57,925 bases of DNA from an uncultured virus (IMG/VR IMGVR_UViG_3300050821_019438) (lineage: Duplodnaviria > Heunggongvirae > Uroviricota > Caudoviricetes): the IMG/VR virus record IMGVR_UViG_3300050821_019438. One strand, given 5' to 3'. Positions 2,911 to 55,560 of this stretch are shown here, one piece after another. The stretch's first letter is position 1; each line of letters begins with the position of its first letter. The position numbers and the translations under genes were made by a program. The notes under the pieces are model-generated. The model was not told where the DNA came from and made no database searches. It saw only the letters and a list, made by a program, of their open reading frames with translations.

Positions 2911-4233
2911 TCACTTTGGCCAGTGATTCTTGAGGCCGAGTGACGCCCACTCCTGAGCCTGTTCGAGCGTCACGGGCGGAGACCAGTGATTGCGGATTCC
3001 GTCGACAGCCCATATCTCTGCCTGACCGAGCGAGACGTTGGATGCTGGCGCGGGAGGTGGAGGCAGAACAGGAGGAGGAATCGGTGGGGTGGGAGCCGGG
3101 CCAGTGGTGGGCGGTGCCGGTGGTGCAACGCTCGAGATCGCGCTGATGAACGCATCGCCGTTGGGCGAGCCAAGGCCCGTCGCCGGGTCCCATCCTGCCG
3201 CTGCGGGGTCGCCGTTCGAACCCTCGGTGATGTCGTTGCACGCTGTTGCTCGAGCCGAGTAGACGTCCGCCGTGAGTCGTCCGCTGATCGCGCCCTTCGC
3301 GACGCCTCGAGCGACCGCGACGAGCGCAGCCGTGAAGGGGGACGATGCGCTCGTGCCACCGATGACGGTCCACGAGCCGTTGGCGCTCATCTGCCAGCCG
3401 CTGTTCGGGTCGGCGTTCGCCGAGGTGTCCGGGACGCCGCGGACCGTACCGGGCACGATGCCGCTCTGGAAAGAAGGCTGAGGTACGGTTGGGTCGAACC
3501 CACCGCCGCCGCCCTCGTCGCCCGCGTTTCCGTCCCCCCAGGCGGCCTCGTCGGAGCGAGCTCCGGTCGAGTCGATGACGAGGCGTGTACCACCGACGGC
3601 CCAGACGTTCGGATCGGAGCACGGGTAGTCCGCCGAGGGGGAAGAGGTCCCGTCGTCGACGGAGTTATCGCCCGCCGCCGCGAAGAACGTGACGCCCTTG
3701 GTGACCCCGTCGGCGAATGCCTTGGCAAGAGCGGCGCGGTCGGATGCGGCCCATTGGTCTGCGGCCGAGCCCCACGACCAGCTCATGACTTCGATCCCTG
3801 CCGAGATGAGGTCTTCGGTCACGAGCGCCATGCCGGCGCCGACGTTGGGACCGAAGCAGATCGTGATGTCGGCCGGCGTGCCGGTGAGCCACCACCAAGC
3901 GAAGGACATGGTCGGCACGATGTCGAGCATGTTCTCGATGTTCGAGTCTTGATCGGATGACGGGTCGTTGACCGCACCGTCGACGGTTCGCACGGTCAGG
4001 TTCGGCGCCGCCATGCCCCAGCGCGCGACCGAGTTGTCGATGTCGGACTGCACGACGCCACCACCGAGACTACCGATGCCGAGCTTGACGCTCGGAATGC
4101 CGGCGAACTGGTTTTGCTTGAACCCGTACGCGGTGAGAATCTGCGCGGGCGAGAGCGAGCCGGCGGGGAAGCTCGGTGAGGAGGCGAGGCGAACTCCACG
4201 AAGGCGCGGATGGTGACGATGATAGTGGTGCAC
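2911..4233 (-). CDS. Sedolisin/kumamolisin-like S53 serine peptidase lacking the pro-domain
   Basis: ENMLD (catalytic E/D), SWSWG, AAAGDN (oxyanion Asp), RGVPD, GGTSASSP (catalytic Ser), GWDPATGLGSP Ca site; Pro-rich linker and small C-domain. Confidence 0.9.
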   Translation of the reverse strand: MHHYHRHHPRLRGVRLASSPSFPAGSLSPAQILTAYGFKQNQFAGIPSVKLGIGSLGGGVVQSDIDNSVARWGMAAPNLTVRTVDGAVNDPSSDQDSNIENMLDIVPTMSFAWWWLTGTPADITICFGPNVGAGMALVTEDLISAGIEVMSWSWGSAADQWAASDRAALAKAFADGVTKGVTFFAAAGDNSVDDGTSSPSADYPCSDPNVWAVGGTRLVIDSTGARSDEAAWGDGNAGDEGGGGGFDPTVPQPSFQSGIVPGTVRGVPDTSANADPNSGWQMSANGSWTVIGGTSASSPFTAALVAVARGVAKGAISGRLTADVYSARATACNDITEGSNGDPAAAGWDPATGLGSPNGDAFISAISSVAPPAPPTTGPAPTPPIPPPVLPPPPAPASNVSLGQAEIWAVDGIRNHWSPPVTLEQAQEWASLGLKNHWPK

Positions 4234-5511: not shown

Positions 5512-6528
5512 TCACTTTCCCACGGTTCCCGAACACGGTCCGGTGTAGGCCGTCGCCCCGCAATCGTCGCAAATTCCGCCCCTGTCGAAGTGGTGCACCC
5601 GCAGGTGCGCGAGGCCATCCACTGCGTCCATAGGACCTTCGATCACGCCGACGCGCCTCTCGGCGAGGGCTCGATAGTCGCCATTCAATTCGATGCCGAC
5701 GAAGCCTCGTCCCAATTGACTGGCGACGGCCAGCGTCGTCCCGCTGCCCGCGAATGGGTCTAGGACGATGTCGTCAACGCGCGTGCCAGCCAAGATGCAG
5801 CGCCGCGGTAGCTCGGGTGGGAAGACAGCGAAGTGCGCTCCCTTGTAGGGTTGGGTCGGGATCGTCCAGACGGAACGGGCGTGCCGCATTGTCCGCTCGA
5901 CCCTGACTAGCTGAGAGACTCGCCCTAAGCCGGCCGCCGCCGTCTTCCCCTTCGTGAAAAGGCTACCTCGCGCCCCGACAACGGCGGGCTCCTCAATAGC
6001 CTTCTCGTCGTAGAAATACCGGAGCGACTTCGTCAGCAAGAAGATGTACTCGTGAGCACGAGTAGGACGGTCCTTCACGCTCTCGGGCATCGTGTTCGGC
6101 TTGCTCCAAACGATGTCCGCTCGTAGGTACCACCCATCATCTTGAAGCGCGAAGGCCGTACGCCACGGGATGCCGGCGAGATCCTTGCGCTTGTAGCCGG
6201 GGACAGACACGTCGTTCGGACGCAGTCCGAAACGGCGGGCACTCTGTTTCGGGTCCACGCCGTGTGCCCGACCCTTCGCGTTGATGAGCGTGTCGCCGAG
6301 ATTGAGCCAAAGCGTCCCGTCGTCGCGGAGCACCCGGCGCACCTCGGCGAAGATCGTCACCAGCTTGGCGACGTACTCCCGAGGCAACTTCTCGGTTCCG
6401 AGCTGGCCTGGAGTGCCGTAGTCGCGCAGGCCCCAATAGGGCGGGCTGGTGACGCAGCACTGAACCGAAGCCTCGGGCAGAGTACGGAGGACGGCGAGGG
6501 CGTCCCCGGTGTGGATGACCCCGTTCAT
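5512..6528 (-). CDS. Orphan N4-cytosine/N6-adenine DNA methyltransferase (beta class)
   Basis: VTSPPYWGLRDY (motif IV) precedes VLDPFAGSGTT (motif I); HFAVFP; extra C-terminal CxxC tail. Confidence 0.92.
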   Translation of the reverse strand: MNGVIHTGDALAVLRTLPEASVQCCVTSPPYWGLRDYGTPGQLGTEKLPREYVAKLVTIFAEVRRVLRDDGTLWLNLGDTLINAKGRAHGVDPKQSARRFGLRPNDVSVPGYKRKDLAGIPWRTAFALQDDGWYLRADIVWSKPNTMPESVKDRPTRAHEYIFLLTKSLRYFYDEKAIEEPAVVGARGSLFTKGKTAAAGLGRVSQLVRVERTMRHARSVWTIPTQPYKGAHFAVFPPELPRRCILAGTRVDDIVLDPFAGSGTTLAVASQLGRGFVGIELNGDYRALAERRVGVIEGPMDAVDGLAHLRVHHFDRGGICDDCGATAYTGPCSGTVGK

Positions 6529-6740
6529 TGCAGAACGAGACACACCACGGCCGCCAGGACGGGCGCGATCCGAAACCGGGTGCTCCGGTACCCCAGCCCG
6601 TGCGGGGTGCTCAGCGACACCCTAGCGGCCCGGCGCATGGCCTCCTCGGCCCGGTCGACGTTGGCGTAGACCGTCGTGCCGAACTGCACCCACCGATGAA
6701 TCCCAGCCGCGTCGACCACCTGCTTCATCACCTTGAACAT
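6525..6740 (-). CDS. Hypothetical protein
   Basis: GAGGAGG RBS; ATGA overlap with the methyltransferase. Confidence 0.65.
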   Translation of the reverse strand: MFKVMKQVVDAAGIHRWVQFGTTVYANVDRAEEAMRRAARVSLSTPHGLGYRSTRFRIAPVLAAVVCLVLQ

Positions 6741-8922: not shown

Positions 8923-9462
8923 CTACCGCTCGGCCTTCTTGGCCATCAGGAAGGCGTACAGGTCCCTGTTCCACCGGGCATCGACGAGCGCGTTGTGCTC
9001 ACCTTCGGGGTCGGGCGGATGGGTCGGACTCCCGACGTCGACCGACAGTTGCTTCAGGTCCCTACAGAACATCGGGAAGCCCTTGGGGAGCCCCATCATG
9101 GTTCCGTAGAGCTGGCAGAGCGCGACCCAATCGTAGTCCGCGTAGTAGGCCCAGACCTCCGGCTTCGTCCCGTTCTTCTGCATGAAAGTCTGAATTTCTT
9201 TGGCCATGAAGGCCCGGTCCATCCACGCTGCGTCTCCGTACCGCGGGAGGTGCGGCAGGACGTTGGCGCGCACCCACAGGCTCACGCGGTGGAGTTGAGC
9301 GTCCTGGCTCACGGCATAGAACTCGCGCCCATCCTCGGCGACGATTCCAATCGAGATGAGGTCGATGGTTGTCCCGTCCTCGTAAAACTCTGTGTCGAGA
9401 AAGAATCTCATGACATTGACCTCGCGCGCGAGCATCGCGGTTCGCTCTTTGTAGTTCATCAC
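8923..9462 (-). CDS. DEDDh 3'-5' exoribonuclease, Rv2179c/RNase AS-like
   Basis: FFLDTEF, LISIG, YADYDW, HNALVDARW. Confidence 0.85.
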   Translation of the reverse strand: MMNYKERTAMLAREVNVMRFFLDTEFYEDGTTIDLISIGIVAEDGREFYAVSQDAQLHRVSLWVRANVLPHLPRYGDAAWMDRAFMAKEIQTFMQKNGTKPEVWAYYADYDWVALCQLYGTMMGLPKGFPMFCRDLKQLSVDVGSPTHPPDPEGEHNALVDARWNRDLYAFLMAKKAER

Positions 9463-9629
9463 TTGATGAGCTTATCGTACTTCAGCTTCTTCAGCGCGGC
9501 ACGTAGACGCGTTTTCGAGTGGGCGCTCTGGAGCGAATCTATCCCTCGTTCGATAGCGCGCTTCACGGTGCGCGGATCGATCTGAGCTTCCAGTGCGATC
9601 CGCGCAATCGTAGTTCGGTCGATTTCCAT
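9459..9629 (-). CDS. Small helix-turn-helix DNA-binding protein (56 aa, not in ORF track)
   Basis: AGGAGG RBS; MEIDRTTIARIALEAQIDPRTVKRAIERG resembles a LacI/Cro-type HTH. Confidence 0.6.
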   Translation of the reverse strand: MEIDRTTIARIALEAQIDPRTVKRAIERGIDSLQSAHSKTRLRAALKKLKYDKLIK

Positions 9630-9656
9630 CGGTTCCACCTCCTAGACCGGGCGCGA

Positions 9657-10073
9657 CTACTCGTCGAGCGCCTTGATGCGCCGCTGGAGCTCCTTCTCCG
9701 AGAGCTCGCTGAGCTTGCCTGCCTGTTTCTCGGCGAGAATCGAGAGCAACTTCTCTTTCTCGATCTTGTTGTCCGCCCGCTTCTTCTCGACCTCTTCCTC
9801 GGCGAGTTTCGTGTCGATGACGTATTTGACGATCTCGAGCACGGTCTCGCGACGGACGTGCTCCGGGGTCTTCGTAGTTTCCACGAAGCTCTCCTCGGAG
9901 ATGTCCTTCCACGCCTTGTTCGCGGCCTTGGCCACGGCGTTGAGGTTGAAGTCGTCCCGCGATCCGTTCGATCGCAGAGGGACGTCCCAGAGCTGTTCGA
10001 GGGTCAGCTCGCCCCGCACGGACTGGAAACGAACCTTGTTGCGTGCCGCGTACTCGAAGATGTTCATGGCCAT
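9657..10073 (-). CDS. Phage-type hypothetical protein, likely partner of the upstream gene
   Basis: MNIFEYAARNKVRF..GELTLEQLWDVPL; coiled-coil C-terminus LSELSEKEL. Confidence 0.8.
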   Translation of the reverse strand: MAMNIFEYAARNKVRFQSVRGELTLEQLWDVPLRSNGSRDDFNLNAVAKAANKAWKDISEESFVETTKTPEHVRRETVLEIVKYVIDTKLAEEEVEKKRADNKIEKEKLLSILAEKQAGKLSELSEKELQRRIKALDE

Positions 10074-10091
10074 GGTCTTTTCTCCTGCCGG

Positions 10092-12191
10092 CTAAGCGCC
10101 GACGTGAACGTGGAACACTCGCTGCTTCTTGCCCTGCTGGGCCCGAACGATGAACGACTCGCGCTTCGTGGACGAGAACCCGAGGCCCGAGAGCTGCTCA
10201 TTCGCAGGCGCGGGCTGGCACTTGGTCTTGTCGCCGATGACCTCGAACACCTTGCGATGAGGTTCGAGGCGCGGGTGCAAAAACTCATTGTAGAACCCGC
10301 GCGTCGGTTCGTCGTTCTTCGCACCCTCGATGACGAAGAAGGTGTGTTTGTTGCCCACGGCGTTGCCGCCCCAGTAGTTGGGGCTGAGCGTGACGGCGCT
10401 GACCTTGACGTACTGCTCGGTCTTGAGGCCCCACTTCTCCTGGGAGATGTTGGCCGCCGAGATGGCCGGGTCTCCGGCCTCGACGTGTTCCACGACACCG
10501 TTCTTCACGTGGAGAACAGCAACGACGACGTCCTGCTGATGGCGCACGGCCTTGTTGTATGAGTAGTGCTGGAGCTTCCCCCCAGTCTCCACCTCGACGA
10601 CGAACCCTGGATCTGCGGTCTCGCGAAAACAGTAGTTGTTGACCACGACCCGATAGGCGCCGTCCGGAGGCTTCGTCGTCCAGACCACGTTCTCGACCGC
10701 CTCGCGCGTGCGTCCGCTGCCAGCGTTCATGTCCACGTCGAGGGTCCCGCCCGTCCATCCTCGCCTGGCGCCGAAGAAGATTTTGCCGTAGACGCCTCGC
10801 GCTCCTCCGCCGTTGGGTTCGATGATGTGCAAGTCGAGGTCGTCGTAGTTGAACCACGACAGCGACACGCGCAGCACTGCGCCTTCGACCTTGCCGCCGG
10901 CTTTCTTGACGCGCTCTCGGATAGAGTCGGCGACGTTGCCGCCGTAGGACCACGCGAAGTCGTTACTCCATCGAAAGAGCTGCTTCGGTTCGGGATGACA
11001 TGGCGCCGTCAACGACATCAGGTTGCCGGCGTGCTCGTTCTTGAAGAGCAGCTCCAGGCTCGTCGTCTCAGGCAGAACCTTCGCCACGAACTCGTCGAGG
11101 CCGATCTCTTCCGCGCGCTGCTCGTCGACTTCTGTGCTCCGGCTCGACGCGACGTGCTGCATGAGCACGTCTCCGATGCCGCCTTTCATCAGAGGCTTGA
11201 CGGTCCCGTTGACCCACTTCACGTCGTTCACGGAGATGTCGCCGATCACGGCGAACCGGCGTTCGAGCGCGGACTCCAAATCAAGAGCCACGATCGTCTC
11301 CATGGCCTTCTTGACCATGCCGGGCGTGATGAGGGCGGTCGTACGCTTGTAGTTCTGCGGCGCGACCTTGGTTTCGAAGCTTTTGACGGCGTGCTCGAGA
11401 TCCTGGCCTTCGGAGAGATCCTGCACCAGGGTGCCGATGACGGTGTTGCGGAACCGCGCCGCGGGGCTACCTGCGTTCGCCCACACGAAGATTTTTCGCG
11501 CAAGGTCGTATCCTTCCAGAGCAAGAAACGCGCGATGCATCTGCATGAAGTTGAGCACCGCGGCCTTGTGCTCCTCGCCTCGGTAGAGCGCGTTCGACTC
11601 GATGAGCGACAGCACGGTCTCGACCGCGCTCGGAGCGAGCTCGACGAGCCCGCGTTCGAAGACCTGCACCGTGGTCCGGTAGTCGCCGCGGACCTGATCC
11701 GGCGACGCGACTCGAAGGGTCTTCGGGATCTCCTCGGTGTAGAAGTGCTGCCACGTGCGGGCCTGCTGCGTCTCCTTGTCGAGGGAGTGCGACTGGACAG
11801 CGCCGAAGCTCGTCTCCTTTTCGCCCACGCGGTACAAGTCGCAAACGTTCGCGGCGCGCACGACATCGCGCAGGCGAGATGCCACGTCGCGGTAGGGACC
11901 ATGCAGCGCCTCGGAGGCTGCATCCCAGATGGTGCGAAACGTGCCGTCACCGTTGATGGTGATGACGTTTCCCGCTCGACGGATGAACTGTCGGCAGCAG
12001 CGACAGTCGTGCTCCGTGGTCTTCTTGAAGAGAGGATTGGAACCAGGGGGGAAGGAAGCGAGATACGCGTTCCACAGCGTGTCGCGGTCCAGCTCGACGA
12101 CGAAGACGCCTCCATGTGAAACGGGTGTCTTGACCAAGCTTTGGAACGACGCCGCAACCATCTTCGTGAACGCCGGAAATTCGTTCGACAC
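10092..12191 (-). CDS. Large (699 aa) phage-type protein with HDCxCC motif and C-terminal YfaP/DUF2135-like domain
   Basis: Start moved to GTG 12191 after GAGGAGG (track start lies inside the tRNA-like gene); EHDCRCC; RVSLSW..DDLDLH..EP, LDVDMN, VENVVW. Confidence 0.8.
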   Translation of the reverse strand: MSNEFPAFTKMVAASFQSLVKTPVSHGGVFVVELDRDTLWNAYLASFPPGSNPLFKKTTEHDCRCCRQFIRRAGNVITINGDGTFRTIWDAASEALHGPYRDVASRLRDVVRAANVCDLYRVGEKETSFGAVQSHSLDKETQQARTWQHFYTEEIPKTLRVASPDQVRGDYRTTVQVFERGLVELAPSAVETVLSLIESNALYRGEEHKAAVLNFMQMHRAFLALEGYDLARKIFVWANAGSPAARFRNTVIGTLVQDLSEGQDLEHAVKSFETKVAPQNYKRTTALITPGMVKKAMETIVALDLESALERRFAVIGDISVNDVKWVNGTVKPLMKGGIGDVLMQHVASSRSTEVDEQRAEEIGLDEFVAKVLPETTSLELLFKNEHAGNLMSLTAPCHPEPKQLFRWSNDFAWSYGGNVADSIRERVKKAGGKVEGAVLRVSLSWFNYDDLDLHIIEPNGGGARGVYGKIFFGARRGWTGGTLDVDMNAGSGRTREAVENVVWTTKPPDGAYRVVVNNYCFRETADPGFVVEVETGGKLQHYSYNKAVRHQQDVVVAVLHVKNGVVEHVEAGDPAISAANISQEKWGLKTEQYVKVSAVTLSPNYWGGNAVGNKHTFFVIEGAKNDEPTRGFYNEFLHPRLEPHRKVFEVIGDKTKCQPAPANEQLSGLGFSSTKRESFIVRAQQGKKQRVFHVHVGA

Positions 12192-12243
12192 GTCGACCTC
12201 CTCGCCTCTCGACAGGCGCTCTGCGTGAGTGACACTACGTTTA

Positions 12244-12318
12244 GGACCCACCGGATGGATTCGAACCACCGACTTCCGGCTTAGCCGGCCGGCGCTCTAC
12301 CACTGAGCTACGAGGGTC
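12244..12318 (-). tRNA. tRNA-like RNA 1 (nominal anticodon GCT, non-canonical)
   Basis: GACCCTCG-TA-GCTC-AGTGGTA-GAGC-G-CCGGC-CGGCTAA-GCCGG-AAGTC-GGTGG-TTCGAAT-CCATC-CGGTGGGTC; G at position 33, no long variable arm, bulged acceptor stem, no CCA. Confidence 0.75.
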
Positions 12319-12338
12319 AAAATGAAAAGTAAGATGTC

Positions 12339-12413
12339 GGACCCACCGGACCGATTCGAACGGTCGACCTCCGGCTCCGGATGCCGATGCTCTACCACTG
12401 AGCTACGAGGGTC
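12339..12413 (-). tRNA. tRNA-like RNA 2 (nominal anticodon CCG, Arg)
   Basis: Same acceptor and D arm as copy 1; anticodon arm TCGGC-ATCCGGA-GCCGG; T arm GACCG-TTCGAAT-CGGTC; bulged acceptor stem, no CCA. Confidence 0.78.
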
Positions 12414-12417
12414 GAAG

Positions 12418-12462
12418 TAGATCTACAACTTGCTGCAACTTGCGTCAAGTTGTTTCAACTTG
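12418..12462 (-). promoter_or_regulatory. Sigma70-like promoter overlapped by four 10-bp-phased CAA(C/G)TTG boxes
   Basis: CAASTTG at 12426, 12436, 12446, 12456; minus strand TTGACG-N17-TAGATC just upstream of the tRNA-like genes. Confidence 0.65.
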
Positions 12463-12495
12463 CTCAAGGCGATTTTTGTCTCGCCTCCCCCTTCA

Positions 12496-14165: not shown

Positions 14166-14374
14166 TTCAATCCTGCTTTCTTTGCGTTCTTGAACCAGAC
14201 ACTGCGCCACCGCTCCGGAACGAGCTGGCTGATTTCTTTGAGTTGCAATTTCAGCTCGGCACCGGGGAGCTTCAGCGACCGCCGGTATCTACCGACTTGC
14301 CATGCGTTGCGCAGTACTTGTCGGCGGCAGGTGAGCGCAGCGAAACGTCGGCGGGCGCGGTCGTCGGGGGTCAT
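14162..14374 (-). CDS. Hypothetical basic protein
   Basis: ATGA overlaps at both ends. Confidence 0.55.
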   Translation of the reverse strand: MTPDDRARRRFAALTCRRQVLRNAWQVGRYRRSLKLPGAELKLQLKEISQLVPERWRSVWFKNAKKAGLK

Positions 14375-14889
14375 GTGTGGGCTCCTACCGGCACGAACGG
14401 CGTCGAGTACGCGAGCATGAGCGGGTGCTTGGGTGTCGAGTCTGCGTTCTGTCCTAAGGTGCCCGCCTTCGCCAGCGACCGGATGATTTCCCACTGGGGT
14501 TTCAGATGGGTCTTCAGAATCAGGTCGCGGAGCTGAGCTGAATGTCCGGCATGACTTCCCCAGGCGAGGACGACGCGGCTGGCGTAGTAGACCGCTTCCG
14601 TGACGTACCGCTCGTTTTCACGACCTTCTGGATTGGTCGTTTCGAGCAGCCCCTGTGGTTTGGTAGCGCGCCACGCAAAGAGGTTCACGACGTCGACGTA
14701 TCCGAATTCCCAGCGCTGCGCGAACCCGATGCACTTGCGGACGGTCGGGTCGTTGATGCGTTCATCGGCCGTCGATGGATTGAGCATGATGAAGACGCAG
14801 CGCTTTGGAATGTCGTGAGCGATGCATCGCCAGAACACGTATCGGTACAGGCGGTCTGGGCTCAAGATGGCGCCGTTGCCGTATCTCAC
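14371..14889 (-). CDS. DUF1643 family protein
   Basis: YRY..WR, FIMLNPSTAD, DPTVRKC, VVNLFAWRAT.P, LAWG, PKHPL. Confidence 0.88.
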   Translation of the reverse strand: MRYGNGAILSPDRLYRYVFWRCIAHDIPKRCVFIMLNPSTADERINDPTVRKCIGFAQRWEFGYVDVVNLFAWRATKPQGLLETTNPEGRENERYVTEAVYYASRVVLAWGSHAGHSAQLRDLILKTHLKPQWEIIRSLAKAGTLGQNADSTPKHPLMLAYSTPFVPVGAHT

Positions 14890-25429: not shown

Positions 25430-25617
25430 GGCTGGCGCTTCTTCGTCGAAACACGTCTGTTACCGTCCCCCTCGAATTGGGCCAAGTTTTGAATGAAGCG
25501 AATGTCTTGGCGATCCTCGCGTACGCGAAAGCCCTTGTTGCGGCCGGTCTGAGGGATGGGGCGCTGGCCGAAGATTTCCCGGATGGTGTTCCAGAGAATG
25601 GCGTCTTCGCGGGTCAT
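25426..25617 (-). CDS. Hypothetical protein
   Basis: Overlapping start/stop codons. Confidence 0.5.
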   Translation of the reverse strand: MTREDAILWNTIREIFGQRPIPQTGRNKGFRVREDRQDIRFIQNLAQFEGDGNRRVSTKKRQP

Positions 25618-26978
25618 GGCTTCACCCGGAACGTGAGCGCCTCAGACATGTGCGACTCGGCGATGGTGTCCTTGCCGTCGAGCGCGGCGATGGTGCGCGC
25701 CAGAATGAGCGCACCGGGGACGCGGGAAGGTTTGTCCGGGAGAGCTTCCACGTGAATGGCTCCCGGCGTTGTTGCCAAAATCTTCCGCGCCGCCTCGACG
25801 CGCGCCCGTACGACCTCGCTCGTTTCCATTCCGCTTGGGATGCGCCCAGACGTGACGGCGGCGATGCGGTAGTCGGGGACCTCGACGCGCATCGCGAACA
25901 GTGACTCGTAGGACGCGGCTCGATCTCGGAAGCGCTTCAGTTGCTCGGGGGAGCACTTGCACCCGGTGATGTACGATGGCCCGCACTCGCACTTGTTCGT
26001 CGCGCCGATGAGCAGCGGCGAGGCCGGCATCGTCGCCGTGCGGCGCAGTGTGACCTTGCCTTCGGACAAGACGCGGGCGAGCGCTTCGAGCGCGCTCTTT
26101 CGAAACTCCTGCACTTCGTCGAGGAAGAGCACGCCGTGATGCCCGAGCGTGACCTCTCCCGGGCGCGGGTGATCGCCACCGCCGAGCAGGCCCAGCTCGC
26201 TCACGGTGTGATGGGGAGCGCGGAAGGGTCGGCCGATGCCGTAGTGGTCGCGACCGCCGCGTAGGCCCGCCGCGTCGTGAATGGTGAGCACGTCGAGCGC
26301 TTCGTCGGCCGTGAGACTCGGCAGGATGCCGGCGAGGCGCCGTGCCGCCGCGGTCTTGCCCGTACCGGGACCTCCGACCAGTAGAAGAGGGTGCCGACCC
26401 GCGGCGGAGATTTCGAGCGCGCGACGAACCGCGGGGGAGGGCAGGTCGGCGATGCTGAGATCGGAGACCTCCTCTTTGATGCCGGGGCTTCCTACGAGCC
26501 GCAGGTTCCCGTTGACGGCCGCGTCGGCGAGAGATTCGCAAGAAAGCACCTTTGCGCTCGTCGCGGTAGCGTCGAAAGCGTTGCCAGCCGGGACTACGAT
26601 CTCTCCCTTCCCAACGGCGCGAGCGTGCGCGACGACGCCGCGCACGGCATGCAGTCGGCCGTCGAGGGCTAGCTCGCCGATGTAGACGGCGTCGCCGCGC
26701 CAGATTCCGTTGTTGCGCAGCCCCGTTATGGCGAGCGCAATCGCCAGGTCGAGGCTCCCAGGATAGCCGGTGACCTCGGGCGTCACGGTGACGTAGACGT
26801 TGCCGGCCTCGATGCCGCACTGAGCGAGCGCCGACTTGACCCGCACTCGGGTCTCGCGCATTGCGGGCGCCGACAGTCCGGTGATCACGATGCCGCCGGG
26901 AGACATGCTGGTCTCGGCTGTGACGGTGACCGGGAGAGATTCGATGCCTACGAGGACGGCGGAACGGACGGTGATCAT
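25614..26978 (-). CDS. comM: ComM/YifB-family Mg-chelatase/MCM-like AAA+ ATPase
   Basis: ITGL...RETRVRVKSAL, LDLAIAL, GELALDG, GGPGTGKT (Walker A), RPFRAPHHT, PGEVTLGHHGVLFLDE, ARTIAAL. Confidence 0.88.
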   Translation of the reverse strand: MITVRSAVLVGIESLPVTVTAETSMSPGGIVITGLSAPAMRETRVRVKSALAQCGIEAGNVYVTVTPEVTGYPGSLDLAIALAITGLRNNGIWRGDAVYIGELALDGRLHAVRGVVAHARAVGKGEIVVPAGNAFDATATSAKVLSCESLADAAVNGNLRLVGSPGIKEEVSDLSIADLPSPAVRRALEISAAGRHPLLLVGGPGTGKTAAARRLAGILPSLTADEALDVLTIHDAAGLRGGRDHYGIGRPFRAPHHTVSELGLLGGGDHPRPGEVTLGHHGVLFLDEVQEFRKSALEALARVLSEGKVTLRRTATMPASPLLIGATNKCECGPSYITGCKCSPEQLKRFRDRAASYESLFAMRVEVPDYRIAAVTSGRIPSGMETSEVVRARVEAARKILATTPGAIHVEALPDKPSRVPGALILARTIAALDGKDTIAESHMSEALTFRVKP

Positions 26979-27424
26979 GAAGCCTCTTTCTGGTAGACGC
27001 CTGTTTTGGAATAGATGCTTCGAATGGGCTTCCCCTCTTCCCAGTCGAGTATCTGGTCTGCACTTCGGCCCCACGCGATGAGGGCCTCGCGCGCCGTGTC
27101 GAATGCGGAAACGTCGAAACCAATCCCGGTAGGAGCGTCGGGGGAATGAGTCCAGTACAGCTCGCGCGTCGATGCGTGCCAGCGCGGCTTGCCGGCGGCT
27201 GTCGTACCGTAGGTCAAACTACGAATCAGAATGCCGGCGCGCTTGCCTTGGTAGAGAATGGGCCACTGGTCGCTCCAGTGAACATCGTTCTTGTAGTGCT
27301 CCAAATGCTCGCCGCGCGAAAGCGTGAATTGACGTTTTCCGATAGATACAAAGCGATTGACAGGCGCTGATATCTTACGGATACGCGGCGGTGGAGGCGC
27401 TTTCATCAGCGGCGGGTTACTCAC
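26975..27424 (-). CDS. Hypothetical protein
   Basis: GTGA overlap start MSNPP. Confidence 0.55.
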   Translation of the reverse strand: MSNPPLMKAPPPPRIRKISAPVNRFVSIGKRQFTLSRGEHLEHYKNDVHWSDQWPILYQGKRAGILIRSLTYGTTAAGKPRWHASTRELYWTHSPDAPTGIGFDVSAFDTAREALIAWGRSADQILDWEEGKPIRSIYSKTGVYQKEAS

Positions 27425-29400
27425 GACGGACCCCGAATCGTGAGCAGGACCGCGCGCACGCCGGTCCCGTCGAACGTGCCGGCCGGTAGCTCTTCCCACG
27501 TCTCGGCCAGCGGCTTGAGCTTCTCCGCTTGCCGCGGACCTCCGGCGCAGATAGCGACGAGTCGGCCGCCGGGCTTCAGGAACGTTCGAGCGTGGAGAAT
27601 GTGTTTGATGTCGGCGCCGTCTTTGAAAGGCGGGTTCATGATGACGGCGTCGAACGGTTCATCAGGCAAATTCAGTTCGAGGAAATCCGTGTTGATTGCC
27701 CCCGTGATGGGCGCGAGTCGACCGCTGATCTCCACCGCGGTAACGACGCCACCGCGCGCTCGAATCGCCTGGACGATGTTTCCCGTACCGGCGCTAGGCT
27801 CGAGTACGCTTTCGCCTTCCCCGATACCGGCGAGACGCACCATGCGCGCCGCCAGGTCGGGCGGCGTCGGGAAGAGCTGGTCCGCCGAGACGACTTGAAC
27901 GCCTGCCTTGAGCGTTTCTTTCATGGCGTCCATCTTCTCGTCGATAACCGGACGTAGAGTGATGCTGGTTGGCAGTGTTGCGATTAGTCCGCGCTCGCGC
28001 GGTTCCGGCGGCTGCGCTTGCGGCAGCTCCGGCTTTTCGCCGCCCGGCGGCGGTGGGTCCTTCCGCGGCGCGTCGGTGATGTAGACGCCGATCGTCTTGA
28101 AGCCGCCCACCGGGAACATGCGGAGCCGGTGAGCGCCGTACTTCTCGGTCGCGGCAATCCGACGCGCTCTACTGATGTCGCTTCCTTCGTACTTCGCCCA
28201 TTCCGCTTTCGTCATTTCCCGGAAGCCTTCGCCGGGATAGTTGACGAGCGGCGCGAGCTTCGTTGCGGCCTTGACCTTGGCGGCATCCTCCTCGCTCGGA
28301 GGCTGGTAGTCTTTGACCTCCTCGATACCGACCTTCTGTTTTCCCCAGCGACCCTTGACGGTGTACGAGTTGACTTCGCCGCCGGTCTTGTTCACGCGCA
28401 GGACTACGCACCACCCGTGGCGCTCTAGCACCTGTCCGCCGGGCTTTACGTCGAATCCCTCGCGGTGGACAGCGATGTCGCCGGTCTCCCCGAGCATCGC
28501 GCGCTCGTACGTGAGTCGGTTTTGAATGTGCGCGATCCATCGCTCGCGCCATTCGGCGTTACGGGTATGCGCCTCGACGGCGCGTTTGGTCGCTTCCTCG
28601 ACGGTGATCTCGTTCTTGTCGAGTGCCGACCACGTGCCGAAAGGAAGCGCGCGATCGTAGTTCGCAATCTTGAGCGCCTGATCGCGCGTGAGCGTGCTCG
28701 ACCAGAATTGAATCCCTCCGATCGACTTGCTGCGCTCCTTCTCGTGCTTGCGCAGGTCGGCCTCCAGTCCCTTGATTCGCCGGTGACGCACGCCGGGGTC
28801 CTCTTTGTACTTGGCGAGGCGCAGCGCACCCGCGGCGCGGCGCTCCCAATATTTCGACGTCTCCCAGAGCTTGATCGCCTTGCGCATGCCGGATTTGATC
28901 CGCTCGGCGTCTTTGCGGGCGTGGCGCTCGGAATGGTGGCCGACCAGGATCGGCTGACCGAGAGGGATATTGTCCGCAATTGCCGCCACCGCTTCGTGTG
29001 CGCGCTCGGCGTCGTCGGCTCGCTTCTCCTGGTATCCCTCGAATCGCTCGGCGCGTTCCTCGGCGCGCTCGACGAGCGATGTATCTTCGTCGCCGATGTC
29101 GCCGCACAGCTCGAACGCCAGATCGGCGCGCTCCGGGGTCCACATGGGCGCGACGAACAGCTCTTGACGCGGTGCCCAGTGGAAGCCGGCGGCCTTGACG
29201 CGGTCGTATAGTTCTTTGGGTAGACGCGCGACCGAGCGCAGGCGGATTTTGTTGTCCTCGGGACTATACGAGGCGTCTATGGTGGGGAGCGCGGAGCTAA
29301 ACGGTCCCGACTCGCCGGCAGGATTGACACATACGCAGCTCTCGGACGTGAGACCGCAGCGGGCGCAGGTTTCGACTTCGGTGTCTGTAGTGGCGTTCAT
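27421..29400 (-). CDS. DUF3560 domain fused to a class I SAM-dependent (N6-adenine-type) methyltransferase
   Basis: ASYSPEDNKIRL, IPLGQPILVGHHSERHARKD (DUF3560); FPTP, VLEPSAGTG, MNPPF. Confidence 0.88.
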   Translation of the reverse strand: MNATTDTEVETCARCGLTSESCVCVNPAGESGPFSSALPTIDASYSPEDNKIRLRSVARLPKELYDRVKAAGFHWAPRQELFVAPMWTPERADLAFELCGDIGDEDTSLVERAEERAERFEGYQEKRADDAERAHEAVAAIADNIPLGQPILVGHHSERHARKDAERIKSGMRKAIKLWETSKYWERRAAGALRLAKYKEDPGVRHRRIKGLEADLRKHEKERSKSIGGIQFWSSTLTRDQALKIANYDRALPFGTWSALDKNEITVEEATKRAVEAHTRNAEWRERWIAHIQNRLTYERAMLGETGDIAVHREGFDVKPGGQVLERHGWCVVLRVNKTGGEVNSYTVKGRWGKQKVGIEEVKDYQPPSEEDAAKVKAATKLAPLVNYPGEGFREMTKAEWAKYEGSDISRARRIAATEKYGAHRLRMFPVGGFKTIGVYITDAPRKDPPPPGGEKPELPQAQPPEPRERGLIATLPTSITLRPVIDEKMDAMKETLKAGVQVVSADQLFPTPPDLAARMVRLAGIGEGESVLEPSAGTGNIVQAIRARGGVVTAVEISGRLAPITGAINTDFLELNLPDEPFDAVIMNPPFKDGADIKHILHARTFLKPGGRLVAICAGGPRQAEKLKPLAETWEELPAGTFDGTGVRAVLLTIRGPS

Positions 29401-29585
29401 GTCTCTGTCCTCGGCTCGCATCGCTGCGCGTGACGCTCGGCGCCTTCGGCGCTCTTGAGCGCATGGCGTACACGGTCGGCCGATTTCTTCGCGCCGGCCA
29501 CGCGTAGCAGGTTGCGAGCGCTGCGTAGGAGACGGATCGCGGCTTGAATGTCCGCGACGTCGCCGGGTTTTCCGGTTTCGGAGCT

Positions 29586-29876
29586 TCATGACAATGCCTC
29601 GGGTCCGCCGACGCGAACAATCTCGTTCAAGGTCTCAACTAGTCCGTTCGCGTTGAAGTAATCAGCGGCGCGGACCTGATTAGCCCATGAGATCGAAACG
29701 TACTCAGGGTCTTCGGAGCGTTGGTATTCGCGCGCTAGCGTCAAGACTGCGCGCTCGTCTGTCGGTGGAGTCTGCCCTACCTCACCGTGCGCCATTGCGT
29801 ACGGATCTACGGGTAACTCGATCCCTCGTTTGAGGGCCTCTAGTTTCTGACTTGTAGTCGACACGTGACGCCTCAT
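29586..29876 (-). CDS. Hypothetical protein
   Basis: MRRHVSTTSQKLEAL; ATGA overlap. Confidence 0.5.
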   Translation of the reverse strand: MRRHVSTTSQKLEALKRGIELPVDPYAMAHGEVGQTPPTDERAVLTLAREYQRSEDPEYVSISWANQVRAADYFNANGLVETLNEIVRVGGPEALS

Positions 29877-51169: not shown

Positions 51170-51526
51170 TCACCCTGCCTGCAAGAGGCGCTCGACCGTG
51201 TACATGTACTTCGCCGCAAGACTGTCGCCAGGAATCGCTCCGCCGGGCGGGAGTGAACCGAGACCAGTGGGTTGCGCAGGAGGTGTTGGTGTTGGAACCT
51301 CAGGCAGCGCCGCTACGGACTGTGTCGTCGCACGCGTCATCAGGTAGACGAGAAACCCCGCAGCGACCGCAGTGACACCGATGATGGCGACGAGCGCGAC
51401 CGGGGAGAGCTCGAGTGGGTTGGCGTGGTCCTGACCCTGTCCATAGACCTCCAAGACCGGGTTCTTTTTGCTCTTGCCAGAGCCGTAGACCTTCACCTTG
51501 TACGCCACGCCCGAAGCGTACCTCAA
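51170..51526 (-). CDS. NP-TM family protein
   Basis: HANPLELSPVALVAIIGVTAVAAGFLVYLM. Confidence 0.7.
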   Translation of the reverse strand: MRYASGVAYKVKVYGSGKSKKNPVLEVYGQGQDHANPLELSPVALVAIIGVTAVAAGFLVYLMTRATTQSVAALPEVPTPTPPAQPTGLGSLPPGGAIPGDSLAAKYMYTVERLLQAG

Positions 51527-54500
51527 CGACGCCGACGTTTCACCGGTTTCCGTGGCTTCTTCGCAGGCTTCTTCCGTCGCGTAGGATTCGCCTTCGGAAG
51601 CACGCGCACGCGCACGTCCGGCTTCGGCTGCGTCAGAGCCACGCCAATTGCGATGCCGGCGGCAAGGACGAGCGCACCTCCGGCGACCCAGACCCAGAGC
51701 GGGATCTTCGACGAGAAGAACGTCGTCGGCGGCATCGGCTCGTTCAACTGCCCCAGGAACGCGTCGCTCGCCTCGAGAATCGCAAGTCGTTGCTCTTCGG
51801 TGAGCGCCGACGGGTCGATGATAGGCGGCAAATCGAACGGCGCGTACTCAACGACGGGTCCGTCTGACTCGGCCGGAACTTCGATGACCGTGAACGTCTC
51901 GCGGCCCTTGGTCTCGACGGCAACGTAGACCGGCTTCTCGACGACGTAGTATTCGGCCTCGAATGCCGGTTCCTCTGCATAACCCGAATCCCCCGTCTCT
52001 TCATTGACCTGCCTCCGGAGAGACTCGAGTTTGTCGTAGTCCGGCGGGCTGAACGGGTGCTTCCACGCCTCTTCGACTTTCTCGCGCCACCAGTTGCCGA
52101 ACCCGGTCGCGGCTCCACCTGCCTGAGCGCGCGTGGGCTGAGGCGGAGGCGGCGGGGGAGGAGGCGGCGGAGTCGGCTTCTTCGGGAGAATCTCTTCCTG
52201 GGGACCAATGAGCGAGATATAGAGCTTGAGGAAAACCGGAGCCGGAAACCCGTGCTCTTCGATGAACGTCGTCGTAGGCGTGAAAACGATGTCTTCGCCC
52301 GACGTCGGAATCGAGACCCAAAGCGGCTCGTGAATCCAAAGCACCGAGCCGTACTCGTCCACGATAGTCGGCGTAGTGGGTGGGACGAACTCCTCGGAGA
52401 CCGGCGGCGACGCAAAGAGCGCATCGACCGCGGTCCACTGCCACGCCGCGTACTCGTCCACAGGTAGACTCTGGATGAACTCCTCGTCGACGAACGGGAC
52501 CGCAACCCACACCGCCTCCGTCGGGGTCCAGATCCAACCCGGGGACTCCTCAAGTGGAAGTGCTCCGGCGAACTCTTCGTCGATGGTCACCGTAATCCAC
52601 GGAACTTCGATCGACGCCCATTGCCAGCCGGGCGGCTCTTCGAGCGGCAACGCTCCGGCGAACTCTTCGTCTCCCGCGAAGGCCGTCGACGCGAGCTCGG
52701 ACAGAATGAACGAAAACGTCGGTTGCTCGTCAATCGCGAACGATCCGGCAAACTCCTCGGGTACAGCGAGGAAGATCCCCTGCGGCTCCGGCGCAATCCA
52801 CGTGGGCTGATTTGGTTGCTCGTCGACGACGAACGGCGCCCAATATGCCTCTTCGATGGGGTAGGTGATCCACGGGACTTCAAGCGGGACCCACACCCAA
52901 CCGGGCGGCTCCTCGAACGGAAGAGAACCCTCGAAGTCCTCCGGGATGCTCGCGAAGATGCCGAATGGCTCCGGTGCAATCCACGTCGGCTGATTCGGCT
53001 GCTCGTCGACGAAGATGTTCGTTCCGACGGACACGTCTTCCGCGATGGACGGGAACTGCGCATCCGGAATCGTCGGCGTCCACGTCGGCAGCGTGGGCTG
53101 CTCGTCGACGACGAACGGTGCCCAGTACGCCTCTTCGATGGGCGCTGTGATCCACGGGGTCTCGAGCGTGAACGCGACCCAGCCAGGCGGCTCTTCGAGC
53201 GGCAACGCGCCGTTGAATTCCTCGGGTACGCTTGGCGCGAACGCGTCGGGGATCGTCGCTGTCCACTGCCACGCAGGAGATTCGTCGAAGGGTATTGAGC
53301 CGGCGAAGTCTTCCGGGATGCTTGCGAACTGCGCGTCAGGAATTGTCGGCGTCCAGATCCACGCCGGAGGCTCTTCGAGTGGGAGGCTGCCGGCGAAGTC
53401 TTCCGGGATGCTTGCGAACTGCGCGTCCGGAATCGTCGGCGTCCAGATCCACGCCGGAGGCTCCTCGAGAGGCAAGCTCCCTTGGAACTCTTCAGGTGAC
53501 GTCGGCGCTTGAGGAACGAGATCATTTGCAATCCATAGAAACGTCCCGGCTTCCTCCGTCGGGTGAGCTCCGCTGAAGTCTTCGCCGCCCGACGTTGCGA
53601 TGGGGAGAATGTCCAGGATGACGAGCGAGAACGTGGGCTGCTCGTCAAGTGGATTGAAGCCAGCAAACTCCTCGGGGATAGATGGAAATTGCGCATCCGG
53701 GATCGTCGGCGTCCACGTAGGAAGCGTCGGCTGCTCATCGACGACGAACGGCCCCCAGAAGAGCTCTTCAATGGGTCGAACGATCCAAGGCACCTCAAGC
53801 GGCACCCAGATCCAACCCGGCGGCTCTTCGAGCGGCAGGCTGCCTGCGAACTCCTCCGGAATCGACGGCGCGAACGCGTCTGGAATCGTAGGTGTCCACG
53901 TCGGCAGTGTGGGTTGTTCGTCGACGACGAACGGAGCCCAATAGGCTTCTTCGATAGGTGCTGTGATCCACGGCGTCTCAAGAGGCACCCAGATCCAACC
54001 CGGCGGCTCTTCAAGCGGGAGGCTGCCCGCGAACTCCTCCGGAATCGACGGCGCGAACGCGTCCGGAATCGTAGGTGTCCACGTCGGCAGCGTGGGCTGC
54101 TCATCGAGAAGGAAGAAGCCGGCGAAGTCCTCATTGATCGGGTACGTGATCCACGGAGTCTCAAGCGGCACCCAGATCCAACCGGGCGGCTCTTCGAGTG
54201 ACAAGCTCCCGGCAAACTCCTCCGGAATACTGGCGAAGATACCAAACGACTCTGGTGCAACCCACGTCGGCCACCCAGGAGCTTCGTCGAAAGGAATACT
54301 CCCTTGGAAATCTTCCGGGATGCTTGCAAAGATGCCAAACGGCTCCGGCGGAATCCAAGTAGGTTGATTGGGCTGCTCATCGACGTTGAAAGGACCCCAG
54401 AAGAGCTCTTCAATGGGTCGAACAATCCACGGCACTTCGAGCGGCACCCAAATCCAACCGGGAGGCTCTTCAAGAGGCAAGCTACCGGCGAAATCTTCCG

Positions 54501-55560
54501 GAATCGACGGCGCGAACGCGTCTGGAATCGTTGGCGTCCACGTCGGCAGTGTCGGTTGTTCATCAACGACAAACGGCGCCCAATAAGTCTCTTCAATTGG
54601 CGCAGTGATCCACGGCGTCTCGAGTGGCACCCAAATCCAACCGGGAGGCTCTTCGAGTGGCAGGCTGCCGGCGAAGTCTTCCGAAACGGACGGAGCGAAC
54701 GCGTCCGGGATCGTCGGCGTCCAAATCCAACCAGGAGGCTCTTCGAGCGGCAGACTTCCTTGGAATTCCTCTGTGACAGGGACCGTTAGCCACTGCGCCT
54801 CGGGCGTCGTCCACGGCGGCGGAGATGTCTCTTCGAGTGCCGCGAGCACGATGACCACGTCCTCGGGAATGCTCGGCGCGAACGCATCAGGAATCGTCGC
54901 AGTCCAGGTCGGCAGCATGGGCTGCTCGTCGACGGTGAACGGGCCCCAGAACGTTTCCTCGATTGGGGCCGTGATCCAAGGCACTTCAAGAGGCACCCAG
55001 ATCCAACCGGGCGGCTCTTCGAGAGGCAAGCTGCCGGCGAAGTCTTCCGGGATGCTCGCAAAAATGCCGAACGGCTCAGGTGCGATCCATGTCGGCTGAT
55101 TCGGTTGTTCGTCAACATTGAATGGGCCCCAAAAGAGCTCTTCAAGAGGACGAACAATCCACGGTGTCTCGAAAGGAACCCAGACTTGTCCGGGAGGCTC
55201 TTCAAGAGGAAGGCTCCCAGCGAATTCTTCGCCTTGCGCCAACGTAGTAACGGGCGTGTCAATGAAAATGACCTCGGAATTGAGCGAGGTCTCTTCCGAA
55301 GGATGTGCGCCCGCGAAATCCTCGGCATACGAAAGCGCATTGATAGGTACGTCGATGAAAACGACTTCAGAATTGAGCGACGTCTCTTCAAGTGCTGCTG
55401 TTACCGCCGCGGTTGCAACGAAATCTTCACCTGCATAGGTCGTCCCGATGACAACGGGAGCGTCGATGATCGCCGCAACACCGCCCGCCGTTTCCTCGTG
55501 AGGATGCCGCTGGATATCGCTGATGGACTGGCCGGATACCGGCTGGCCGGGAAGCGACAT
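51523..55560 (-). CDS. Giant (1345 aa) acidic Trp/Pro/Glu repeat protein with C-terminal TM and NP-basic tail
   Basis: ~30-aa units such as EDFAGSLPLEEPPGWIWVPLEVPWITAPI and EEAYWAPFVVDEQPTLPTWTPTIPDAFAPSIP; poly-Pro; TM; KANPTRRKKP. Confidence 0.85.
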   Translation of the reverse strand: MSLPGQPVSGQSISDIQRHPHEETAGGVAAIIDAPVVIGTTYAGEDFVATAAVTAALEETSLNSEVVFIDVPINALSYAEDFAGAHPSEETSLNSEVIFIDTPVTTLAQGEEFAGSLPLEEPPGQVWVPFETPWIVRPLEELFWGPFNVDEQPNQPTWIAPEPFGIFASIPEDFAGSLPLEEPPGWIWVPLEVPWITAPIEETFWGPFTVDEQPMLPTWTATIPDAFAPSIPEDVVIVLAALEETSPPPWTTPEAQWLTVPVTEEFQGSLPLEEPPGWIWTPTIPDAFAPSVSEDFAGSLPLEEPPGWIWVPLETPWITAPIEETYWAPFVVDEQPTLPTWTPTIPDAFAPSIPEDFAGSLPLEEPPGWIWVPLEVPWIVRPIEELFWGPFNVDEQPNQPTWIPPEPFGIFASIPEDFQGSIPFDEAPGWPTWVAPESFGIFASIPEEFAGSLSLEEPPGWIWVPLETPWITYPINEDFAGFFLLDEQPTLPTWTPTIPDAFAPSIPEEFAGSLPLEEPPGWIWVPLETPWITAPIEEAYWAPFVVDEQPTLPTWTPTIPDAFAPSIPEEFAGSLPLEEPPGWIWVPLEVPWIVRPIEELFWGPFVVDEQPTLPTWTPTIPDAQFPSIPEEFAGFNPLDEQPTFSLVILDILPIATSGGEDFSGAHPTEEAGTFLWIANDLVPQAPTSPEEFQGSLPLEEPPAWIWTPTIPDAQFASIPEDFAGSLPLEEPPAWIWTPTIPDAQFASIPEDFAGSIPFDESPAWQWTATIPDAFAPSVPEEFNGALPLEEPPGWVAFTLETPWITAPIEEAYWAPFVVDEQPTLPTWTPTIPDAQFPSIAEDVSVGTNIFVDEQPNQPTWIAPEPFGIFASIPEDFEGSLPFEEPPGWVWVPLEVPWITYPIEEAYWAPFVVDEQPNQPTWIAPEPQGIFLAVPEEFAGSFAIDEQPTFSFILSELASTAFAGDEEFAGALPLEEPPGWQWASIEVPWITVTIDEEFAGALPLEESPGWIWTPTEAVWVAVPFVDEEFIQSLPVDEYAAWQWTAVDALFASPPVSEEFVPPTTPTIVDEYGSVLWIHEPLWVSIPTSGEDIVFTPTTTFIEEHGFPAPVFLKLYISLIGPQEEILPKKPTPPPPPPPPPPQPTRAQAGGAATGFGNWWREKVEEAWKHPFSPPDYDKLESLRRQVNEETGDSGYAEEPAFEAEYYVVEKPVYVAVETKGRETFTVIEVPAESDGPVVEYAPFDLPPIIDPSALTEEQRLAILEASDAFLGQLNEPMPPTTFFSSKIPLWVWVAGGALVLAAGIAIGVALTQPKPDVRVRVLPKANPTRRKKPAKKPRKPVKRRRR

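Follow-up and report, generated by a model that had tools for sequence, protein, structure and literature searches.

The stretch analysed here (hereafter the window) is 57,925 nucleotides (nt) of DNA from an uncultured member of the Caudoviricetes, IMG/VR record IMGVR_UViG_3300050821_019438. Its source is a phage of soil, its sequence was found in soil metagenomes, and it looks like part of a large phage; the 699-amino-acid (aa) protein of the locus under study sits on a contig of 119,925 nt. On the minus strand of the window, two tRNA-like RNAs (12413..12339 and 12318..12244) are followed by an operon of four genes. These encode the large protein of 699 aa (12191..10092), which belongs to the DUF8224 family (PF26675; phrog_1735), a conserved partner of 138 aa (10073..9657; phrog_2018), a helix-turn-helix (HTH) protein (9638..9459) and a DEDDh 3′-5′ exoribonuclease of 179 aa resembling RNase AS (9462..8923). 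This arrangement had been proposed in an original prediction made from the sequence alone, and we found both 75-nt cloverleaves, 20 nt apart, as well as all four downstream genes at these positions.

In the window, ARAGORN called 12339-12412 as tRNA-Arg with anticodon CCG and 12244-12317 as tRNA-Ser with anticodon GCT. The 75-nt units used here are these ARAGORN genes plus the G preceding each of them (G-1). The Rfam tRNA model (RF00005, gathering score 29) gave 50.5 bits for copy 1 and 52.4 bits for copy 2, and R1, a covariance model of the RNA family, gave 102.2 and 95.1 bits, respectively. The spacer between the copies (12319..12338) is U-rich, 20 nt long and the same in L007, the closest relative of the window. 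As predicted, the copies do not differ in their first 25 nt (5′ strand of the acceptor stem and D arm) or in their last 10 nt. In addition, the minimum-energy fold of copy 1 reproduced the proposed acceptor stem of 8 base pairs (bp) with one bulged U (U69), together with the D and T arms, and copy 2 was aligned to it. The T stems of the two copies, GACCG/CGGUC and GGUGG/CCAUC, differ by compensatory changes, and neither copy encodes a CCA end; both finish with GGGUCC, and the next base is G or U. The nucleotides of the tertiary contacts are all present (U8, A14, G18 G19, G15/C48, U54 U55 C56 A58).

The anticodon loop of copy 1 is AUCCGGA, with anticodon CCG and U33, and that of copy 2 is CGGCUAA, with anticodon GCU, A37 and G33 in place of U33; both copies carry U20. 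The loss of U33 from one copy had been noted before, and the two loops had been called unrelated. However, C35 and A38 are common to both loops, which also obey the arginine rule (C35 with G36 or U36). Compared with copy 2 of L007, the T stem of copy 2 in the window has two compensatory pair changes. In the anticodon loop of this copy, G36-G37 was jointly changed to U36-A37, and the rule of C35 with U36 was retained. Copy 1 of a relative carries the anticodon ACG. Among the 15 members of the family, U33 is missing only from copy 2 of the window, which is also alone in having a non-arginine anticodon. A gene for a tRNA-Arg-derived RNA has been duplicated in tandem to give the two elements. Copy 2 (GCU, G33) would be a diverged second version that still needs its fold, since its T stem changed twice in a compensatory way despite the loss of U33 and the replacement of G36-G37 by U36-A37.

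The model R1 was built from the first six sequences and was searched against 54 sources and against loci that a pattern scan had picked out of metagenomes and viral contigs. Finally, 15 distinct relatives scored above 88 bits, and the counts given below refer to these 15 sequences. The metagenome scan demanded a motif starting at G-1, so members without G-1 would escape it; G-1 is present in all three lineages found via the protein (L006, L007, and L009). We found that 96.4% of cells form standard pairs, a level matched by 0 of 500 shuffles. Furthermore, compensatory changes were seen in four of the five T-stem pairs and in two of the five anticodon-stem pairs. The 5′ strand GACCCUCGUAGCUCAG is invariant (15/15), and the 5′-most 16 nt are unchanged in every sequence although the proteins are only about 70% identical. 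Thus, the covariation of the T stem bears out the earlier view that the structure is conserved. The companion claim, that decoding identity is not, applies to copy 2 of the window only, and the anticodon is NCG in 14 of the 15 sequences.

These results bear on the idea that the RNAs are decaying tRNA pseudogenes without function. The missing CCA, the acceptor mismatches in the canonical register and the loss of U33 in copy 2 would all be expected of decaying genes. However, the six compensatory pairs and the failure of any shuffle to reach the observed pairing contradict this idea, and the invariant 5′ 16 nt next to proteins of about 70% identity also speak against it. We regard decay as highly improbable.

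The 3′ acceptor strand of the family reads CG-NN-GGGUCC. Positions 68/69 (NN) are GU, UG, UA, AU, CG or CA. Each of these combinations consists of a purine, which can pair with U5, and a pyrimidine, which is left over. When the acceptor helix is read in the canonical register, 71.4% of its positions pair; A1 pairs with position 72 in only 2 of the 15 sequences, and in 13 an A1.G72 mismatch is accompanied by one or two others. When the 3′ strand is slipped by one base, the value is 90.8%, and 13 of the 15 sequences form eight pairs, including G-1:C74 and A1:U73, with one bulged pyrimidine. L009 and L090 have one G fewer and form seven of the eight slipped pairs, with a C.U mismatch. Position 73 (canonical numbering) is U in 13 sequences and C in 2, is never a purine and is paired in the slipped register; in all members of the family, the stem is followed by CC. 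The 7-bp acceptor stem of a canonical tRNA, with free discriminator and CCA end, was not found in the family.

The anticodons of the family are ACG (10 sequences), GCG (2), CCG (1), UCG (1) and GCU (1). C35 is present in all sequences, position 36 is G in 14 and U in one, and U33, C35, G36, G37, and A38 are kept together in 14. The arginine identity set is given as A20, C35, G36/U36, and A/G73 (PMC9976931). Of this set, C35 with G36/U36 was found in 15/15, the window copies included, A20 in 10/15 and a purine at position 73 in none. The ancestor was likely of the type of a canonical tRNA-Arg(CCG) in an 11-tRNA array (L095-L106), which shares the 5′ half and has the 3′ strand CGGGGGU, A73, and CC; by sequence comparison, this array gene likely shows the ancestral state. 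The generic tRNA scores of the family (45-57 bits) and of the array tRNAs (53-66 bits) overlap. In summary, the RNA still has the body of a tRNA, with the nucleotides of the tertiary contacts and the anticodon determinants for arginine. Furthermore, the covariation and the pairing in the two registers indicate that it forms a tRNA-Arg-derived family under structural (purifying) selection, in which the acceptor stem has been re-registered by one base.

One explanation for these features is that the RNAs are ordinary decoding tRNA-Arg genes of the phage, co-transcribed with the operon; the acceptor stem would then be a tolerated quirk, and copy 2 would be drifting. ARAGORN and Rfam call both RNAs tRNAs, all tertiary-contact nucleotides are kept, the anticodon is an arginine one in 14/15 and CC always follows the stem. 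In addition, among the Arg codons of the open reading frames (ORFs) in the window, CGC, CGT, and CGA together account for 75% and CGG for 18%. However, the A1.G72 mismatch comes with one or two more mismatches in 13 of the 15 sequences, the discriminator is U or C instead of A or G, and it is the slipped register, not the canonical one, that is maintained by the variation at positions 68/69. Copy 2 combines G33 and a serine anticodon with a class I body, yet shows compensatory change in its T stem, and A20 is missing from the window lineage. Ordinary decoding has the slipped stem and copy 2 against it, and we consider this explanation possible but rather doubtful.

A promoter-like site on the minus strand (12420..12448) precedes copy 1. 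It consists of TTGACG (12448-12443) and TAGATC (12425-12420) with a 17-nt spacer, has 8 of 12 consensus matches in our own scan and ends 6 nt before the first G of copy 1. In 10 of the 12 loci compared, the distance from the end of the best -35/-10 pair to G-1 is 6-7 nt; the spacer is 17 nt throughout, and sites in six loci pass strict promoter criteria. G-1 is retained in the second copies too, where a transcription start is impossible. There are three exact copies of GCAAGTTG in the window, all of them within 12426-12463, and CAAGTTG repeats occupy the promoter spacer and the -35 region. The inverted repeat CAAGTTG-aaa-CAACTTG (12446..12462, minus strand) overlaps the -35 hexamer and is a candidate operator for the HTH protein of the operon; in L091, the near-palindrome CAACTTGCAGCAAGTTG fills the promoter spacer. 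Relatives of the HTH protein are confined to RNA-bearing loci (L006, L007, L009/L010, L090, and L104). Given the promoter repeats and this distribution, the HTH protein probably binds the CAAGTTG repeats and autoregulates the transcript.

Downstream of copy 2, a leader of 52 nt (12192..12243) carries the Shine-Dalgarno sequence GAGGAGG (12203-12197), 5 nt ahead of the GTG start of the large gene. The fold of this leader is no better than that of shuffles (z +0.74), and no terminator-like site was found on the minus strand between the RNA and the gene. In the family, the start codon lies about 17 to 90 nt after the RNA (about 25-45 nt in most loci), with a Shine-Dalgarno sequence ahead of it, and in L104 the Shine-Dalgarno sequence is only 4 nt after the RNA. 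A terminator-like site between RNA and gene was not seen in most loci checked. L006 is the only lineage, among those checked, with a terminator-like hairpin and T run at this place (L006:3941-3975). Furthermore, the RNA, promoter, operator, and HTH gene travel as one block, and the genes upstream of it differ.

This organization raises the question of whether the RNA is a cis-acting element of the 5′ untranslated region, whose paired 5′ end (G-1:C74) and buried 3′ end would serve mRNA stability, translation or processing. The predicted transcription start at G-1 in 10/12 loci agrees with such a role. The same is true for the short distance to the Shine-Dalgarno sequence in L104 and to the start codon in most other loci, for the absence of a terminator-like site from most loci and for the movement of the RNA with promoter, operator, and HTH as a block. 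The slip would also remove the single-stranded end used by tRNA 3′-processing enzymes. However, a mere stabiliser leaves the conservation of the anticodon loop (14/15), the retained elbow nucleotides and the G-1 of the tandem second copies unexplained, and the hairpin of L006 stands between RNA and gene. The anticodon conservation argues against a pure cis role, which we consider somewhat unlikely.

An ORF of the DUF8224 family lies directly downstream of the RNA in 11 of 11 lineages with enough flank (at least 300 nt downstream; L088 and L103 end too early). These are the window, L007/L092, L006, L009, L090, L091, L093, L097, L100, L104, and L107, and they include L104, whose protein is only 26% identical. 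To place the RNA on the history of the protein, a quick IQ-TREE tree of 29 large-protein sequences was used, which omitted L100 (a fragment) and L104 (too distant). In this tree, the RNA-bearing rows formed one clade (9/9, SH-aLRT 90), so a single gain suffices. The tree thus indicates that the RNA was gained once, in one soil-phage lineage, between the promoter and the first gene of the operon, and that it was inherited vertically at the head of the operon.

Most DUF8224 genes have no such RNA. R1 was negative in the sister-clade loci L008, L011-L014, L016-L018, L020-L023, L033, and L065, and in five sister-clade genomes the nearest Rfam tRNA was 17-61 kb off or there was none. In addition, no tRNA was found upstream of the DUF8224 gene in four distant named phages (L001-L004), and none within 6 kb of this gene in CcrRogue, TsarBomba, and RSL1. 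The expectation that tRNA-like RNAs would stand upstream of homologues of the large gene therefore holds for the lineages of the clade and does not hold in general. We rejected a general link between DUF8224 and tRNAs because the distant phages and the sister-clade genomes have no adjacent tRNA. A 98-nt ‘tRNA-Pro’ called by ARAGORN before the gene in L019 was not supported by Rfam.

Outside the clade, same-strand tRNAs within about 700 nt upstream of the gene were found in L029, L064, L069, L112, and L125, plus L073, which has a GOLLD RNA. The GOLLD RNA (L073:3186-3653; Rfam 163.6 bits, threshold 150) contains an embedded tRNA and lies ~340 nt upstream of the DUF8224 homologue; a permuted tmRNA (64.4 bits) was found at 1604-1987 on the other strand of the same IMG/VR locus. 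In L064, an AT-rich phage, two weak tandem tRNA matches (3803-3964; 35.2 and 37.2 bits) abut a DUF8224 gene of 43% identity; this layout is like that of the window, and the sequences are unrelated. L112, a contig binned as Saccharibacteria, has a cluster of three tRNAs (2459-2873), one of them with a CUA (amber-reading) anticodon, 128 nt before its DUF8224 gene.

In L007 (5548-5715; 89% identity) and in L092, the large gene stops at about residue 519, so that the last ~180 codons are gone, and the gene of the 138-aa partner is deleted; both RNAs and the HTH gene are intact. The L007 genome is rated complete, and its 127.5 kb hold no further tRNA. These loci matter for the proposal, put forward in the original prediction as a ribonucleoprotein (RNP), that the RNA is a partner, cofactor or substrate of the DUF8224 protein. 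The strict adjacency in 11/11 lineages, even with the 26%-identical short form of L104, and the six loci outside the clade with a same-strand tRNA or tRNA-containing RNA nearby are in its favour. However, the tree indicates a single gain of the RNA, while the protein occurs in hundreds of phage records and the sampled loci mostly lack a nearby tRNA, as do the five sister-clade genomes mentioned above. Moreover, L007 and L092 keep both RNAs despite the truncated protein and the deleted partner, and no RNA-binding fold was recognised in the large protein. An obligate RNP would fit poorly with the single gain and with the truncated gene of L007, and we consider this proposal unlikely.

The large protein is covered by the phrog_1735 profile from residue 3 to 695 (PHROGs, E 5.8e-227), and PF26675 is the precomputed Pfam label of it and of all 120 relatives listed. 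The HDCRCC motif (H61-C63-C66, residues 61-66) is present as predicted. A tblastn search gave relatives from 544 phage records, and 460 of these are near full length; the records include Ackermannviridae, phiCbK-like, Bastille-like, RSL1, and LMM01 phages. There are more than 3,136 matching protein clusters, and none of the 120 listed has a functional name. No match of the large protein was found in a Pfam profile search (E ≤ 0.1) or in NCBIfam, PADLOC, and the PDB sequences, and a literature search found no publication naming DUF8224 or PF26675. The label ‘YfaP-like’, which had been given to this protein, proved weak: DUF2135 (PF09906, YfaP) did not match it at E ≤ 0.1 and weakly matched only 8 of 39 relatives (best E 0.012). 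The Atlas search returned DUF8224 clusters only and nothing for residues 1-430, and the sole result of a wider homologue search was a beta-sandwich common to lectin and zinc-ribbon proteins.

An AlphaFold2 model of the large protein reached a pLDDT of 81.2. In this model, a TerD-like beta-sandwich is seen at residues 437-576 (Foldseek probability 1.0, TMt 0.47), and VIA aligned 128-129 residues with the TerD structures 2qz7 and 2kxt (Z 8.1 and 7.6; 14% identity). No Pfam TerD match was found in the protein. The N-terminal 345 residues, folded alone, gave a pLDDT of 85.4 and no recognised fold; Foldseek and VIA found nothing above noise for this part (best Z 5.9, a helical bundle). In these models, the TerD-like domain is the only recognisable part of the protein. 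The fold matches in BFVD are exclusively uncharacterised proteins, and they include proteins of giant viruses (Megaviridae sample, E 4.7e-10; Indivirus, E 8.8e-6). L104:129-1754 encodes a short form of 541 aa with 26% identity, which by eye lacks the TerD-like insert and which has no 138-aa partner; it lies between the same promoter and tRNA-like RNA on one side and the HTH gene on the other. The matches in PaMx74, AXL_1, and Donnerlittchen, which cover residues ~24-425 only, may be the same short form.

The 138-aa partner (PHROGs E 1.6e-34) has a C-terminus that is helical and charged. Of 83 loci searched by tblastn, 55 have its gene directly 3′ of the large gene, and no match to the partner was found in Pfam or PDB. 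The HTH protein is 56 aa long from the first ATG, the length reported earlier, and 59 aa long from the GTG start; its match to HTH_29 (E 3.7e-4) falls below the cut-off of that profile. The start of the exoribonuclease gene overlaps the HTH stop. The exoribonuclease matched the Rv2179c-like family of Pfam (49.5 bits, cut-off 27) and phrog_2259, and its score with the RNase_AS model of NCBIfam (NF033638; 186.3 bits) was just short of the cut-off of 200. However, tblastn found no relative of this gene in any of the 83 loci. It is specific to the window, and therefore it cannot belong to a conserved system with the RNA and the large protein. In agreement with the original prediction, neither Rsr (TROVE) nor RtcB was found among the 30 window ORFs scanned (128-39676).

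On the basis of these results, we tentatively favour, at somewhat less than even confidence, the explanation that the RNA is a trans-acting, non-standard tRNA-Arg, a stand-in or decoy that is co-expressed with the operon. Transcription would start at G-1, which would make the RNA the 5′ end of the operon transcript. The tRNA-processing enzymes would then release the RNA, which could act in trans as a non-standard tRNA-Arg and not as a normal elongator tRNA. It might stand in or bait for host tRNA-Arg towards arginyl-tRNA synthetase (ArgRS) or towards a tRNA-Arg-directed nuclease. Its tie to the DUF8224 module would be co-expression from one early promoter.

Several observations weigh against this explanation. 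Generic models score the RNAs as ordinary tRNAs, the position-34 variants A, G, and C would also suit plain CGN decoding, and in 25 window ORFs, 93% of the Arg codons are CGN. The window copies carry U20 and not the A20 favoured by ArgRS. In addition, a stricter promoter scan reported no promoter in the window, and the flush 5′ end is not universal, since the best promoter lies 34 nt upstream of G-1 in L107 and 21 nt upstream in L093. Nor does the host have any known nuclease directed at tRNA-Arg or any other known defence target. A more specific version sees the slipped cloverleaf as a purpose-built tRNA-Arg with a non-ribosomal role. Its paired 5′ triphosphate G would be the first base of the transcript, the arginine anticodon set would serve for its recognition, and it would be either a dedicated ligand or aminoacyl donor of the DUF8224 family or bait for a host enzyme directed at tRNA-Arg. 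We give this version little credence.

Elsewhere, the window also encodes methyltransferases, an HNH endonuclease, an integrase, and AAA ATPases. At 25614-29589, a Mg-chelatase/ChlI-type AAA protein (486 aa) adjoins a 722-aa protein with DUF3560 and methyltransferase domains. A further N6/N4 DNA methylase is encoded at 5512-6543 and a DUF1643 protein at 14371-14889. On the minus strand, 51523-55560 holds an ORF of 1345 aa without a PHROG match at E ≤ 1e-5. A tmRNA gene was not among the ARAGORN calls for the window.

The RNA described here is a candidate new RNA family, with 15 distinct sequences and strong covariation, and it offers a natural test of how much change in the acceptor stem is tolerated by the tRNA machinery. 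It is also a possible first lead on DUF8224 (phrog_1735). If the purpose-built version were true, it would provide the first functional handle on a protein family found in hundreds of large phages and in some giant viruses. Our literature search found no description of this RNA or of a re-registered phage tRNA fused to a promoter and mRNA. We compared it with known systems that it resembles in part.

YrlA, a Y RNA that works with Rsr (RF02553), had been suggested as an analogue. It shares a tRNA-like D/T module with the window RNAs. However, the window RNAs have no Ro-binding stem, and their YrlA score of 25.4 bits is below the gathering score of 69; this score comes from a match that runs from the T arm of copy 1 into the D arm of copy 2. 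Membership in the YrlA or Y RNA family was rejected on this score. The calcium-binding beta-sandwich of the TerD family (2qz7 and 2kxt) superposes on residues 437-576 of the large protein; however, the sequence identity is only 14%, and the domain of the large protein is an insertion missing from the 541-aa form.

RNAs of tRNA shape are also found at the start of coding transcripts or beside them. The thrS operator mimics only the anticodon arm of a tRNA, and species 1 and 2 of the T4 tRNA cluster are not mRNA leaders. In contrast to the window RNAs, neither of them has a slipped full cloverleaf.

The slip itself resembles a step in the CCACCA tagging carried out by the CCA-adding enzyme, in which the 3′ strand of an unstable tRNA or tRNA-like RNA slides by one base and one nucleotide is bulged. 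In both cases, the terminal Cs pair with 5′ Gs after a slip of one base. However, the slip in tagging is transient and takes place on the enzyme, whereas here it is gene-encoded and conserved. Acceptor stems of 8 bp are known from bacterial tRNA-Sec and from allo-tRNAs. In tRNA-His, G-1 is a determinant for HisRS (PMC9976931). The window RNAs are like tRNA-His (G-1:C73), tRNA-Sec, and allo-tRNAs in having an extra 5′ G paired with C and an acceptor helix of 8 bp. They differ from all three in their arginine-type body and anticodon, their short variable arm and the conserved bulge in the 3′ strand.

Finally, phage tRNAs are now known as weapons against tRNA-cleaving immunity. For example, the tRNA-Lys of T5 counters PARIS, as reported in PMC11464382, and phage tRNAs are reported to counter retron effectors (PMC11555353). 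The RNAs of the window share with the tRNAs of these reports a phage-borne tRNA fold and variation that is concentrated in the anticodon loop but keeps the isoacceptor identity. However, the tRNAs of those reports are chargeable and have normal acceptor ends, whereas the RNA described here has a slipped stem, encodes no CCA and heads an mRNA.

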